The translations under genes and the position numbers were made by a program. A model generated the notes under the pieces. The model saw only the letters and a list, made by a program, of their open reading frames with translations. It searched no databases and was not told the DNA's origin. DNA of 64,000 nt from a virus (taxonomy: Duplodnaviria; Caudoviricetes). This document shows, one piece after another, positions 23,851 to 36,806 of this stretch. The stretch covers positions 1-64,000 of IMG/VR virus record IMGVR_UViG_3300037484_000250. One strand, written 5' to 3'. Position 1 is the stretch's first letter, and every line of letters begins with the position of its first letter.

Positions 23851-24813
23851 TTGGAGTTTTTCGATAAAACTATTTTAATAACAGGCGGTACAGGAACTTT
23901 CGGGCAAAAATATGCAGAATGGTTATTAAAGCATGAAAAAATAAAACGAATCATAATTTTTTCGAGAGATGAATTAAAACAACATGAAATGAGGCAGAAA
24001 TTAGAAGATGAAAGAATTAGGTATTTTATAGGTGATGTAAGAGATCTAAATCGTCTTGAAAGAGCATTTAATGAGGTTGATATTGTAATTCATGGTGCAG
24101 CATTAAAGCAAGTACCATCTTGTGAATATAATCCGTGGGAAGCAGTACAAACCAATGTATTTGGTACGCAAAATGTAATCGAAGCATCCATTAATAAAAA
24201 TGTTAGTAAGTGTATTTTATTGAGTACAGACAAAAGTGTAATGGCAAGTAACACATATGGCAAAACAAAAGCGTTAGCAGAATCGCTTATAGTAAATGGA
24301 AATGCCTATGCGAGTGGGACAAAGACAAAATTTAGTTGTGTTCGCTATGGTAATGTAATTGGATCAAGAGGAAGTATAGTCCCACTCATGATAAGTCAGC
24401 GCGATAGTAATCAACAGATTACAATCACAGATGTTCGTATGACAAGATTCTGGCTACAACCTGAACAGGCTTGCACAATAGTTTCGGAAGCGATTAAGGC
24501 GATGCATGGTGGAGAGATATTTATCCCTAAGATTCCGAGCGTTAGAATTCTTGATTTAAAAAGAGCTATAGCACCAAAGTCGAATAATAAATTTATCGGC
24601 ATTCGAGAAGGGGAAAAATTGCATGAGGCCCTTATTAGTGAGCAAGAAGCCCCAATGACGATTGATGCTGGTAAATTTTTTGTTATAGAAAGTCCCCAAA
24701 ATTGGTTTCAAAGAGGCAGGATCGAGGGGGAACCGTTCAAAAAAGCAAGATATGTAAGTGATGAGAATGAGGATTTCTTGAGTATCGAAGAGATTGCAAA
24801 AGGTATTTCGTAA
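23851..24813 (+). CDS. pseB: UDP-N-acetylglucosamine 4,6-dehydratase (PseB/FlaA1-like)
   Basis: ITGGTGTFG, FSRDELKQHEM, FIGDVRD, HGAALKQVP.CEYNP, STDK, VRYGNVIGSRGS, MTRFW, GIREGEKLHE. Confidence 0.93.
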   Translation: MEFFDKTILITGGTGTFGQKYAEWLLKHEKIKRIIIFSRDELKQHEMRQKLEDERIRYFIGDVRDLNRLERAFNEVDIVIHGAALKQVPSCEYNPWEAVQTNVFGTQNVIEASINKNVSKCILLSTDKSVMASNTYGKTKALAESLIVNGNAYASGTKTKFSCVRYGNVIGSRGSIVPLMISQRDSNQQITITDVRMTRFWLQPEQACTIVSEAIKAMHGGEIFIPKIPSVRILDLKRAIAPKSNNKFIGIREGEKLHEALISEQEAPMTIDAGKFFVIESPQNWFQRGRIEGEPFKKARYVSDENEDFLSIEEIAKGIS

Positions 24814-25345
24814 GCCATTACCATAGAGATTAAAAACATTCGTGATGAGCGAACCATATATCTAGATTAAAAACATAGCGATTGAGTGAGCCAGTGGAAA
24901 GGGATAGTAACATAACACCTGAGCGAACCAAGGTGCGTGAGAGTGCCAAACAAGTCGAGTGAACCAATGCAGTTGATCTTTTCAGATTGGAAGAGTGATC
25001 CGAAATAAGAGAAAGTAACAAGTGAGATGAGTGAGCAATTGTATAGAGGTTTACCCAACATAGATGAGCGATCCAGAATTTGAGAGTGAATCATATCAAC
25101 TGAGAGAGTCATAATGTGTGATGATAGCAAAGAAAACGAGCGAATCAATCCCCAAGAGATGACCGGATGCTTGGAGTGAGCCACAAGGGAGGAGAGTTCC
25201 AGTCCTTGCGAGTGAACCAATTGTCATGAGTGTACCCAAATAACGCGAGTGAACCAAATTATCCGAAGAAAAACAAATTCTATGAGTGAGCCATAATTAT
25301 ATGATTAAACATAATATTTGAGCGATCAGTTATTAAATCTGACCA
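24810..25345 (+). repeat. TIGR-like dual-repeat array 2 (about 14-15 units)
   Basis: Same edge AGYGARYCA and alternating loop repeats at about 36-nt period, e.g. AGTGAGCCA-CAAGGGAGG-AGAGTTCCA-GTCCTTGCG-AGTGAACCA. Confidence 0.85.
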
Positions 25346-25364
25346 GAAAGAGGGAAGATAATCT

Positions 25365-25628
25365 TTGAGATTAGGAACGTTCGATATTTCGAGGACAGAT
25401 ATTTTAGAATCGCCGGAATTAGTAATGGCAATCACTGGGAGAATGTTGATATATAGGGCTGAAATGATGTTTCATAGGGACTCGGTAGAATATATAGCTG
25501 TATCGGATCTATTCGATGAGGTAGAACAAGGGGAATGTCCTCCTGAATATTTCATTATTGTTGAGAAGACAGAGGATGAAACATATGTTGTTTCGGCTTG
25601 TAAGAAAAAAGGGATAACATTTTCATAG
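25365..25628 (+). CDS. Hypothetical protein directly downstream of array 2
   Basis: GAGGGA RBS, TTG start. Confidence 0.65.
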   Translation: MRLGTFDISRTDILESPELVMAITGRMLIYRAEMMFHRDSVEYIAVSDLFDEVEQGECPPEYFIIVEKTEDETYVVSACKKKGITFS

Positions 25629-25693
25629 GAATATGTGTTATGAAATGGCATTCACTACGTGAGTGCTTTAATTATTTTGTGGGGGAAAAAAGT

Positions 25694-34724: not shown

Positions 34725-35386
34725 TGTTCTCTAAAGAATGGGAAGAAAGGTATAGTCAGGGTATGAGTCATTCACTTTGGCCTTGGACGGATCTAATTAA
34801 ATATGTAAATAGATATGGTAATTTAGTAGCTGGTGATAAGGTCTTAGAATTAGGGCCGGGTATTGGTGCGAATATCCCGTATTTCCTATCTATTGGTGTG
34901 GATTATTATGCTATCGAGGGAAGTCCTACGGCAGTAAAAATGATCAGAGATAAATATCCAGAATTAGCGGGTAAGATTATCAATGGAGATTTTACAAAAA
35001 ATATACCCTTTGATATAAAATTTAATCTAGTTATCGATAGAAGTTCATTGACACATAATGACACTGCGAGCATCATGGATTCGCTCACATTTATTTCTGA
35101 TAAATTAATGCCGGAAGGGAAATTCATTGGAATTGATTGGTTTTCTTGGGAACATGGACAAAGAAGATTGGGAAGTCAAGGTCGAGATCCTTATACATTT
35201 ACATTTGAACAAGGTAAATTTATCAAATGTGGAAAGGTTCATTTTAGTACGGAGGCACATATATCTACAGTTTTCGGGGAGTCGGGATTTGAGATAGAAG
35301 TACTCGAACATAAAATAAATCAAAATATAAAACCAAATGTGGGAAATACAGAGGCAGTATGGAATTTAGTGGCAATGTTAATATGA
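34724..35386 (+). CDS. Class I SAM-dependent methyltransferase
   Basis: VLELGPGIGAN, IEGSPTAV, DRSSLTHN; ORF track start 34688. Confidence 0.85.
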   Translation: MFSKEWEERYSQGMSHSLWPWTDLIKYVNRYGNLVAGDKVLELGPGIGANIPYFLSIGVDYYAIEGSPTAVKMIRDKYPELAGKIINGDFTKNIPFDIKFNLVIDRSSLTHNDTASIMDSLTFISDKLMPEGKFIGIDWFSWEHGQRRLGSQGRDPYTFTFEQGKFIKCGKVHFSTEAHISTVFGESGFEIEVLEHKINQNIKPNVGNTEAVWNLVAMLI

Positions 35387-36100
35387 GTGATGGGAGAGAA
35401 ACTTATGGGAGCGTTGGCAATTATTCCAGCAAGGGGTGGATCGAAACGTCTGATAAATAAAAATATCCAGACTATTAATGGAAAAACATTACTAGAGTAT
35501 GCGATCCAGACATCGATTGATAGTGGGGTCTTCTCGGAGATTGTGGTCACTAGTGATGATCGAAGTTATCTGGAAATTGCTTCAAAATATAAAGTAGTTT
35601 TACATTTAAGACCACCTAGTTTAAGTGGTGATTTCTGTAAATTGAGGACATTGGTGAGATATCTACTAGAAATATATTATGCAGAAGGAAATGCATTCGA
35701 AAATATGGCGCTTGTTATTCCGACTTCACCATTAAGAAATGCTAATGATTTAAGGACGGCATCAGCATTGTTGGATAAGCACCAAGACATAAATGGTGTA
35801 ATGAGTGTGAGTAATTTGAGATATCCGCCAAGGCATTCACTTCGAATAAATAAAACAACGGGGTTAGTTGAACCTATGTTCCCAGAGGATATTGATACCC
35901 AGCATATGGAATTAGAGCAGGGATATATCCATGATGGGTCTGTTATATTTGTGAGAACTAAAAAGTTCATGCAATATGAAGATTTTTATATGCCGAGTAT
36001 GATGCCATATTATGTGAGTGAAGAAAGAGCGATGGATATTAATACTCAGAATGATCTAAGGATAGCAAGATTTCTGATGGGAGAGTATGGGAGGAAATAG
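35387..36100 (+). CDS. neuA: CMP-nonulosonate synthetase (NeuA/PseF acylneuraminate cytidylyltransferase)
   Basis: IIPARGGSKRL.NKN, VTSDD, LRP..LS, PTSPLR, DINT..DL..A. Confidence 0.92.
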   Translation: MMGEKLMGALAIIPARGGSKRLINKNIQTINGKTLLEYAIQTSIDSGVFSEIVVTSDDRSYLEIASKYKVVLHLRPPSLSGDFCKLRTLVRYLLEIYYAEGNAFENMALVIPTSPLRNANDLRTASALLDKHQDINGVMSVSNLRYPPRHSLRINKTTGLVEPMFPEDIDTQHMELEQGYIHDGSVIFVRTKKFMQYEDFYMPSMMPYYVSEERAMDINTQNDLRIARFLMGEYGRK

Positions 36101-36101
36101 C

Positions 36102-36806
36102 ATGGCGGATATTCTTATAATTTCAGCTCATCCGGACGATGAAGTGCTAGGTTGTGGCGGAGTAATAGCGAGATCGGTAAGAGTTGATAATCAAGATGTA
36201 TACATCGCATATTTGAGTTATGGAGCAATGGCAAGAAGACCGGGCGAAGATATGGATGATCTTGAAAAAGAAAAGATCAAAGATAGATCTAGGGCTGCGA
36301 TATCGGTGTTAATGGGTGTATCGAAATCAGATATTAAAAAACATTTAAGGTTTGTAGATTTTCCAGACAATCAATTTGATACAGTACCATTCATAAATAT
36401 TGTTCGTTTGATAGAAGAACTTATCGATGAGTTACAACCGGATTGCATATTCACGCATTCCCAGAAAGATTTGAATATTGATCATGTTATAACACACAGG
36501 GCAGTATTGACGGCGACAAGACCGATGAAGGATAAGCATAGAGTATCAGCTATATATACATTTCCTATTCCGTCCAGTACGGAATGGGCATTTTCATCTT
36601 TTGGAAGTTTCTCGCCGAATGTATTCTTTGATATTGCGACATTTACTGAACTGAAAATTAGAGCATTAAAATGTTATGATACAGAGGTGAGAGCATTTCC
36701 TCATCCGAGATCGGTTGAACTTATTCAAGTGATGGCATGTTTTATGGGATCTAGTGTGGGAATGGGGTCGGCAGAGGGGTTTGAAGTTGTTAGGTGTTTG
36801 ATATGA
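36102..36806 (+). CDS. PIG-L/LmbE family N-acetyl-sugar deacetylase
   Basis: AHPDDEVLGCGG, FPDNQFD, DLNIDH, HPRS; ORF track start 36087. Confidence 0.9.
   Translation: MADILIISAHPDDEVLGCGGVIARSVRVDNQDVYIAYLSYGAMARRPGEDMDDLEKEKIKDRSRAAISVLMGVSKSDIKKHLRFVDFPDNQFDTVPFINIVRLIEELIDELQPDCIFTHSQKDLNIDHVITHRAVLTATRPMKDKHRVSAIYTFPIPSSTEWAFSSFGSFSPNVFFDIATFTELKIRALKCYDTEVRAFPHPRSVELIQVMACFMGSSVGMGSAEGFEVVRCLI

Follow-up and report, generated by a model that had tools for sequence, protein, structure and literature searches.

A gene island between terS and terL of a tailed phage that may make a tailored pseudaminic-acid-type nonulosonate for the virion

The pathway to cytidine monophosphate (CMP)-activated pseudaminic acid (CMP-Pse) in Campylobacter and Helicobacter, composed of PseB, PseC, PseH, PseG, PseI and PseF, is the described system closest to the genes treated here. 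Sugars of this class, the nonulosonates, influence how bacterial surfaces are recognised by the immune system, what charge they carry and how receptors are masked on them. The genes belong to a virus (Duplodnaviria; Caudoviricetes) held as IMG/VR record IMGVR_UViG_3300037484_000250, whose first 64 kb (positions 1 to 64,000, called the window) were analysed, and they form an island at 23851-36806, all on the + strand, between the genes of the small and large terminase subunits (terS and terL). The phage PseB, PseC and PseF have their best family matches in this pathway, a canonical NeuB-family synthase is likewise present, and the gene order is as in bacterial cassettes that bear PseG. The phage version differs in lacking PseG and the GNAT enzyme PseH, for which a hexapeptide acyltransferase stands in, in family matches that lie below the equivalog cut-offs, in its position between terS and terL, and in its large tailoring module. 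Besides the bacterial Pse pathway, the other known kind of system underlying the finding is phage virion glycosylation. Mycobacteriophages reportedly encode glycosyltransferases only and rely on the sugar nucleotides of their host, whereas here the sugar biosynthesis genes are carried by the phage itself and the sugar would be a nonulosonate. As far as the work is cited in PMC12691614, transferases encoded by mycobacteriophages modify capsid and tail proteins, a natural precedent that resembles the use proposed below (Freeman et al., 2023, PMID 37329881).

The best explanation of the island, which we hold with about even confidence, is that it makes a tailored, CMP-activated nonulosonate of the pseudaminic acid type and that a GT42-like enzyme puts this sugar on Ser/Thr-rich head proteins. 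If the genes are expressed, uridine diphosphate (UDP)-N-acetylglucosamine (UDP-GlcNAc) would be dehydrated by PseB, a 4-amino group would be added by PseC, and N-acetylation would fall to the hexapeptide acyltransferase, replacing the GNAT enzyme PseH. The hexose would be released by a UDP-sugar hydrolase that is not phage-encoded, either the host PseG or an unrecognised enzyme, then condensed with phosphoenolpyruvate (PEP) by NeuB2 and converted to the CMP-sugar by the PseF-like enzyme. During tailoring, a PIG-L enzyme may take off an N-acetyl group and WbqC, with its BshC-like ligase fold, may re-acylate the freed amine, while DegT2 and NeuB1 would help to build or alter the new substituent and two methyltransferases would methylate it. 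The GT42-like enzyme of the head module would then move the sugar onto the Ser/Thr-rich head proteins and thus give a glycosylated virion. The core genes are listed with their family matches and E-values.

23851-24813, + strand: PseB-type inverting UDP-GlcNAc 4,6-dehydratase, first step (TIGR03589; PF02719 at 7e-93)
27384-28460, + strand: PseC-type pyridoxal phosphate (PLP) aminotransferase of the DegT family, second step (PF01041 at 2.6e-109; TIGR03588)
30924-31964, + strand: NeuB2, canonical nonulosonate synthase for the PEP condensation (PF03102 at 1.5e-63)
31906-32367, + strand: hexapeptide-repeat acyltransferase (PF00132 at 4.9e-14)
35387-36100, + strand: PseF-like CMP-sugar cytidylyltransferase, activation step (TIGR03584; PF02348 at 5.2e-19)

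PseB matches TIGR03589 over its full length at 405.6 bits, 2 bits under the equivalog cut-off of 407.75, with FnlA at 242.9 and LegB at 62.6. PseC has its best match in TIGR03588 at 358.6 bits (cut-off 423.5), followed by LegC at 234.6, and the PseF-like protein matches TIGR03584 at 145.7 bits over residues 10-230 (cut-off 205.7). NeuB2 retains the equivalents of Glu25, His215, His236 and Arg314 (the SAF-domain Arg) of Neisseria meningitidis NeuB. These family scores favour a predicted core of the pseudaminic rather than the legionaminic type. An earlier note on this DNA, made from the sequence without database searches, had listed the same sugar genes, and every one was recovered on the + strand at the coordinates given here by the open reading frame (ORF) listing and the Pfam and NCBIfam scans; it had also considered legionaminic or sps-like chemistry, from which the LegB score and the lack of any PF02350 match in the genome lead away.

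The genes downstream of NeuB2 have a close bacterial counterpart. With WbqC as the probe, 80 bacterial and archaeal loci were fetched, which are the basis of all neighbourhood counts given below for WbqC, PIG-L and DegT2. The phage order NeuB2, hexapeptide acyltransferase, DegT2, WbqC, (TylF), MT2 and PIG-L recurs in many bacterial loci with 44-64% identity, as in Noviherbaspirillum denitrificans (L019), Chlorobium (L021) and Bacteroidales (L031), and these syntenic loci often have PseB and PseC a few kb upstream. NeuB2 is 45-50% identical to the sole NeuB of bacterial PseB/PseC/PseG cassettes. In N. denitrificans, PseC is separated from NeuB by a stretch that encodes a cytidylyltransferase and a 'pseudaminic acid biosynthesis-associated methylase' (273.7 bits against a cut-off of 112), and also a true PseG (313.2 bits against a cut-off of 153.55). 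The only acetyltransferase of that cassette is the hexapeptide enzyme, the same substitution for PseH as in the phage, where no GNAT enzyme of the PseH type was found among the cluster proteins scanned; the hexapeptide acyltransferase therefore likely performs the N-acetylation that PseH performs in the canonical pathway. Because the gene order is the same and the N. denitrificans locus has a true PseG, the phage module appears evidently derived from a Pse-type bacterial cassette. The bacterial cassettes differ from it in carrying PseG, and the syntenic loci L019-L022, L031 and L032 are without NeuB1 and the sigma genes found in the phage. No publication characterising the bacterial cassette of NeuB, hexapeptide acyltransferase, DegT, WbqC, methyltransferase and PIG-L was found in the literature.

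The island truly belongs to the phage and is kept there by selection. The IMG/VR record is 83,528 bp (83.5 kb) long, has direct terminal repeats and an estimated completeness of 100%, and the island is bounded by the two terminase genes.

20655-21131, + strand: terS, small terminase subunit, upstream boundary of the island (phrog_4102, E 1.5e-35; weak Sf6_terminase Pfam match)
37051-38286, + strand: terL, large terminase subunit, downstream boundary of the island (PF03237 at 3.2e-19; PF17289 at 3e-12)

The distance from terS to terL was measured as 15.9 kb, in agreement with the separation of about 16 kb given in the earlier note. Five assemblies, independent of one another and drawn from different metagenomes, are 66-96% identical in TerL and share the placement of the cluster and the gene order terS, (ParB), Acb2, PseB, orf87, PseC, sigma, NeuB1, NeuB2, hexapeptide acyltransferase, DegT2, WbqC, (TylF), MT2, PseF, PIG-L, terL and portal; the exceptions are in the relative L093, which has the hexapeptide-DegT2 pair relocated and TylF missing. 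The GC content of the island is the same as in the remainder of the genome, including the virion genes. From 25640 to 36806 the ORFs abut or overlap save for one 20-nt gap and no frame is broken, while the ratio of nonsynonymous to synonymous substitution rates (dN/dS) is 0.03-0.22 for all cluster genes against the 96% and 77% relatives, with terL and portal in the same range. Divergence from the 96% relative (L009) is mosaic, with dS of 0.47-0.62 in PseB, the first sigma gene, the hexapeptide-DegT2 pair and PIG-L and 0.08-0.22 in their neighbours, which suggests recombination within the cluster among members of the clade. That the cluster is an artefact, a host locus misjoined to a phage as in a refuting case named by the earlier note, or else a decaying passenger, is scarcely credible: no point in its support was found, the sugar genes are interleaved with the phage genes for sigma factors and a DNA methyltransferase, and the terminal repeats, five-assembly synteny, even GC and purifying selection exclude misassembly and decay for practical purposes. 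A megablast comparison of the island with 50,697 deposited phage records gave no match.

The proposed tailoring module is composed of six genes.

29848-30927, + strand: NeuB1, non-canonical NeuB-family protein with NeuB and SAF Pfam domains (PF03102 at 1.2e-56)
32354-33310, + strand: DegT2, short DegT-family PLP enzyme (PF01041 at 4e-48)
33298-34044, + strand: WbqC-family protein with a predicted ATP-dependent ligase-like fold (PF08889 at 7.9e-75; AlphaFold2 predicted local distance difference test score, pLDDT, 85.8)
34041-34724, + strand: TylF-like S-adenosylmethionine (SAM) methyltransferase (PF05711 at 1.9e-05)
34688-35386, + strand: class I SAM methyltransferase, MT2 (PF08241 at 2.5e-05)
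36087-36806, + strand: PIG-L family de-N-acetylase (PF02585 at 1.2e-23; best NCBIfam matches BshB1 and BshB2)

The name WbqC goes back to O-antigen gene clusters that serve the synthesis of 6-deoxy amino sugars. No paper linking it to a function was found in the literature, and a profile search of genome contigs with a phage-only WbqC alignment gave no match. When the WbqC model was searched with VIA-align, BshC of Bacillus subtilis (4WBD) came first (Z 12.1, 222 of 248 residues, 13% identity), and the lower matches included class I tRNA synthetase catalytic domains at Z 8-10 and MshC at Z 6.7. In the synthesis of bacillithiol and mycothiol, a sugar amine is exposed by a PIG-L deacetylase (BshB or MshB) and then acylated by BshC or MshC. 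The phage also pairs a PIG-L deacetylase with a BshC-like fold, whereas its substrate would by analogy be a nonulosonate or a hexose precursor. Since PIG-L resembles BshB and WbqC is predicted to fold like BshC, the comparison suggests that an N-acetyl group is removed by PIG-L and that another acyl group, possibly aminoacyl, is ligated by WbqC. Of the 80 loci, 35 have PIG-L as the immediate neighbour of WbqC; the two genes are no more than 2.5 kb apart in 58 and no more than 10 kb apart in 67. DegT2, which keeps the PLP lysine motif and has a deletion of about 35 residues relative to solved homologues, is near WbqC in 52 of the 80 loci, and both methyltransferases occupy equivalent positions in the bacterial cassettes L020, L022, L031 and L032.

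The second NeuB-family protein of the island, NeuB1, is only 26% identical to NeuB2. In an alignment with solved PseI, it has Asp and Arg at the columns where N. meningitidis NeuB has its metal-binding His215 and His236, and all 35 of its closest homologues, the bacterial ones included, have Asp and Arg there as well. Further canonical motifs are altered in this subfamily and a new invariant GHHH motif is present. The non-canonical NeuB was met in the window, in five loci of the clade, on three further viral contigs and on one contig from a metagenome, each time with a canonical NeuB beside it. The scan of metagenomes for non-canonical NeuB was dominated by canonical NeuB, with L175 as the sole informative locus; its order is PseB, PseC, PseF, PseG, NeuB, DegT2, WbqC, non-canonical NeuB and PIG-L, and its set of PseB, C, F, G and I is complete. 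As a separate observation, NeuB subfamily members with Asp/Arg or Pro/Arg in place of the metal histidines occur in bacteria and in several viral lineages (L096, L097, L124, L175).

From these observations NeuB1 is probably a tailoring enzyme and not an ordinary second synthase. The earlier note had counted two NeuB synthases and hence one or two nonulosonates; as NeuB1 is without the metal histidines and travels with WbqC and PIG-L, one tailored sugar appears more likely than two. It is correspondingly improbable that NeuB1 and NeuB2 are both synthases of different nine-carbon sugars, a reading with which the SAF domains of both proteins, the strong purifying selection on both genes and the pseudaminic acid synthase 8H2C as the best solved match of NeuB1 would agree. 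Against it are the changes at the active site throughout the NeuB1 subfamily, the presence of a single cytidylyltransferase gene and a single dehydratase gene, and the association of the non-canonical NeuB with a canonical one, as well as with WbqC and PIG-L, in the loci examined.

Tailored nonulosonates have been described in several bacteria. In Campylobacter jejuni and Legionella pneumophila, PtmG and PtmH produce acetamidino and then N-methyl (N-methylacetimidoyl) legionaminic acid, acting on N5 of the CMP-nonulosonate (PMC3766260; bioRxiv 10.64898/2026.04.20.719630). As in the phage, a tailoring enzyme and a methyltransferase lie beside NeuB, and in L. pneumophila a second NeuB-family gene adjoins the methyltransferase, which is similar to the two NeuB-family genes of the phage; the sugar of PtmG/PtmH is legionaminic, whereas that of the phage would be of the pseudaminic type, and neither of these two papers mentions a PIG-L partner of PtmG/PtmH. 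Similarly, the flagellin of Clostridium botulinum carries N5-(N-methyl-glutam-4-yl) legionaminic acid, a natural nonulosonate that is N5-aminoacylated and N-methylated (bioRxiv 10.1101/2020.06.03.131540). A more specific and tentative proposal, which we consider rather unlikely in its entirety, is that WbqC, PIG-L, DegT2 and NeuB1 constitute an undescribed module that strips the N-acetyl group from a pseudaminic-type sugar, builds an amino-acid-like chain, for which NeuB1 would supply a keto-acid and DegT2 the amino group, and attaches it by BshC-like ligation, so that the charge of the sugar is altered and a clade of roughly 84-88-kb phages coats its capsid with the product through the phage-specific GT42-like enzyme. 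Were this so, a virus would encode its own sialylation-like system, with chemistry that is new.

The candidate for transferring the sugar is encoded in the head module, where it follows the capsid gene and two genes for Ser/Thr-rich proteins.

46417-46803 and 46848-48149, + strand: two Ser/Thr-rich head-module proteins (28-29% Ser+Thr), candidate acceptors
48235-49140, + strand: GT42-like (CstII-like) candidate CMP-nonulosonate transferase (AlphaFold2 pLDDT 84.1, 42 sequences)

All top Foldseek matches of the GT42-like model are CstII, Cst-I or a Pasteurella sialyltransferase (E 4e-6 to 3e-4). A profile of its family matches the CstII sequence at E 4.7e-5, with the N-terminal nucleotide-binding GxxPS and YGxD regions aligned, and the Pfam match to CST-I is weak at 16.7 bits against a cut-off of 25. 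By Foldseek and profile the protein shows the trait of GT42, a GT-A-variant fold with N-terminal CMP-binding motifs. It is thus modelled with the same fold and N-terminal nucleotide-binding motifs as CstII and Cst-I of C. jejuni (CAZy GT42, PF06002), from which it differs in its long C-terminal helix and in sequence (16-18% identity); the acceptor of CstII and Cst-I is lipooligosaccharide, whereas that of the phage enzyme would be protein. The gene is 83-84% identical in the clade relatives, and the family counts 3,153 representatives with E-values no higher than 0.001.

The neighbourhoods of the gene were examined in the best 80 loci of at least 557 IMG/VR stretches encoding relatives. It lies just after a capsid homologue in 18 of these 80 viral loci, and core nonulosonate genes are found within 10 kb of it in 14. 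In L291 and L299-L301, pseB separates the transferase gene from the head genes, with pseC also there in L291 and L300, and nine unrelated viral NeuB loci have a transferase gene nearby. In other phage lineages, too, the major capsid gene and the GT42-like gene flank homologues of the Ser/Thr-rich proteins. The position of the GT42-like gene in the head module beside the Ser/Thr-rich proteins, recurring in phage lineages, favours virion glycosylation over spore conversion.

Several points weigh against the proposal of a pseudaminic-type sugar transferred to the head. The PseB, PseC, NeuB2 and PseF matches are all under the NCBIfam equivalog cut-offs, and NeuB2 scores higher with the NeuB/NnaB model (314.2 bits, cut-off 399.65) than with PseI (241.9 bits, cut-off 340.25). 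The match of WbqC to BshC comes from one aligner, with a Z only moderately over background, and Foldseek found no match for the WbqC model at E 0.001 or better. For the GT42-like protein, the Foldseek TM-scores are modest (0.37-0.48), and the profile alignment stops near CstII residue 158, leaving the catalytic His188 outside the aligned stretch. Ser/Thr richness is common among virion proteins. No recognisable UDP-sugar hydrolase appears anywhere in the genome, so that the route is incomplete as encoded, which is the chief difficulty for any view of the pathway as complete.

This absence, observed for the window in the earlier note, holds for the whole genome. When all 83.5 kb were searched in six frames with E-values up to 0.1 admitted, neither PseG (TIGR03590) nor NeuC (PF02350) nor Maf (PF01973) gave a match; the same TIGR03590 search matched 8 of 14 control genomes, and the NeuC and Maf searches also matched controls. 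A PseG profile of our own, built from bacterial loci, found PseG-like ORFs in 22 of the 80 bacterial loci and in only 2 of 72 loci around viral NeuB genes; the window and the clade relatives L091-L093 and L095 gave no hit. As PseG is absent, the encoded route would require a hydrolase of the host or an unrecognised one, and of the route from dehydratase through aminotransferase, acyltransferase and NeuB to a NeuA-type enzyme drawn in the earlier note, most steps and the tailoring genes stand and the hydrolase step is missing. Two other genes of the island, orf173 and a Dam-like gene, were considered as PseG substitutes and rejected, because relatives keep the pathway without both. The missing enzyme could also mean that the cluster stops short of a nonulosonate and that its chief product is a modified UDP-4-amino-4,6-dideoxy-hexosamine or some other small compound, put to a use other than a sialylation-like glycosylation of proteins; the lack of PseG near 70 of the 72 viral NeuB genes and the origin of the name WbqC would be in keeping with this. 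We regard it as unlikely: a PseF-like enzyme and a canonical NeuB whose catalytic residues are all in place are conserved and under selection, neither of which would have a role without the free hexose, and the nearest folds of the transferase use CMP-sugars.

The missing PseG also enters into the question of where the sugar is used, as do genes reminiscent of sporulation within the island and the head module.

28656-29300 and 29321-29851, + strand: two sigma-70-family genes (Pfam regions 2 and 4)
40808-41098: SpoIIID homologue in the head module, between MuF-like and protease genes (PF12116, E 1.1e-28)

The best matches of the sigma genes are the mother-cell sporulation factors SigK (129.6 bits) and SigE (127.3 bits), far under the cut-offs, and every clade member keeps at least one sigma gene. 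Together with SpoIIID, these genes could mean that the host forms spores or that the phage controls transcription of the mother-cell type. They would fit a conversion of the host surface, in which, during infection or carriage, the CMP-sugar is used by host transferases on flagellin, S-layer, cell-wall or spore-crust glycans, possibly for a superinfection block or an alteration of the spore, and in which the GT42-like enzyme may act on host targets. The lack of PseG suggests, in the same sense, a host already running a Pse-type pathway, and remodelling of pseudaminic acid in the host capsule is known for the prophage genes epaA and epaB (PMC12053666). Host conversion nevertheless seems a minor possibility, though one to be taken seriously, because the island, flanked by terS and terL, runs in the same direction as the virion genes, and the sole candidate transferase gene lies in the head module by the capsid and Ser/Thr-rich genes in several lineages. 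Furthermore, no integrase was found among the proteins scanned in a genome scan that was not exhaustive, and the sigma matches are remote. A search with SpoIIID for the host returned phage-clade relatives only, and a portal-protein search for a prophage found none in 339 genomes of one class, reached via a Eubacteriales metagenome-assembled genome. The closest TerL relatives in deposited phages are at most 51% identical and their hosts are varied, so they give no indication of the host. Of the two uses put forward in the earlier note, virion glycosylation is thus strengthened by the GT42-like gene, whereas spore or cell-surface conversion has only the indirect hints of the sigma, SpoIIID and PseG findings.

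Genes of this kind are rare in deposited phage genomes: of 50,697 records, three contain NeuB, six a PseB-like protein and one a GT42-like transferase. IMG/VR holds at least 73 NeuB loci in addition to the stretches encoding relatives of the transferase, and the rarity in deposited genomes beside the many uncultured viral contigs indicates a trait that is common in nature though unstudied. The literature yielded no account of a nonulosonate pathway that a phage encodes, nor of such sugars on virions; the isolated phage TayeBlu has an annotated sialyltransferase, which is unstudied. The unusual features of the present locus are its placement between terS and terL, the embedded sigma genes, the tailoring module of WbqC, PIG-L and NeuB1, and the lack of PseG. 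If the explanation is true, tailed phages not only glycosylate their virions but also make the activated nine-carbon acidic sugar themselves. The cluster further points to two uncharacterised enzyme types found in many bacterial phyla as well: WbqC as a putative BshC-like ligase paired with PIG-L, and the NeuB subfamily whose active site has been rebuilt.

The remaining features inside or beside the island are not assigned to the pathway.

22763-22966, + strand: 67-aa protein of Acb2/Tad1 type, just upstream of pseB (PF24729, E 7.8e-24), kept in L091-L095
24827-25300, no strand assigned: non-coding repeat array, not part of the pathway, with a spacing of 36-37 nt and the core GAG(C/T)GAACCA
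25365-25628, + strand: orf87, 87 aa, after pseB in all clade members and 56-92% identical in L091-L095
25640-26869, + strand: Dam-like DNA methyltransferase (PF05869 at 3.2e-11; phrog_111 at 6e-32)
26866-27387, + strand: orf173, a 173-aa ORF, variable insert with the Dam-like gene
28453-28659, + strand: 68-aa Cys-rich ORF, conserved in close relatives

The Acb2/Tad1-hairpin family comprises anti-defence nucleotide sponges, and its place upstream of pseB is constant throughout the clade. The repeat array spans the gap between pseB and orf87, in which there is no + strand ORF of 60 aa or more. The array, orf87, the Dam-like gene, orf173, the Cys-rich ORF and the two sigma genes are additions to what the earlier note had listed. 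Orf87 has no Pfam or PHROG match, and its candidacy as an acyl carrier protein was rejected by Pfam. The Dam-like gene and orf173 are absent from L009, L010 and L092, which retain the remaining cluster; as they and an upstream HNH gene are variably present among relatives, these three are variable inserts and not parts of the pathway. In a promoter scan the sites were fewer than in shuffled controls, and terminator-like sites all fell inside ORFs.

Other genes of the window were noted in passing. Directly after terS, at 21137-22743, are genes for a ParB-N-domain protein, also found as ParB in several relatives, and a radical-SAM-like protein (phrog_9298, E 1e-46), while upstream a PemK/MazF-type toxin gene (19530-19895; PF02452, E 2e-28) lies downstream of an Amidase_3 gene (18325-19194). 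In the head module, 41374-42831 encodes a 485-aa fusion of a uracil-DNA-glycosylase-superfamily domain and an XkdF-type prohead serine protease domain. A YqaJ-type exonuclease and RecT recombinase pair at 1519-3422 is followed by a GIY-YIG homing-type endonuclease at 3479-4183, and DnaB_2 and IstB-like replication genes are found at 13771-15528.

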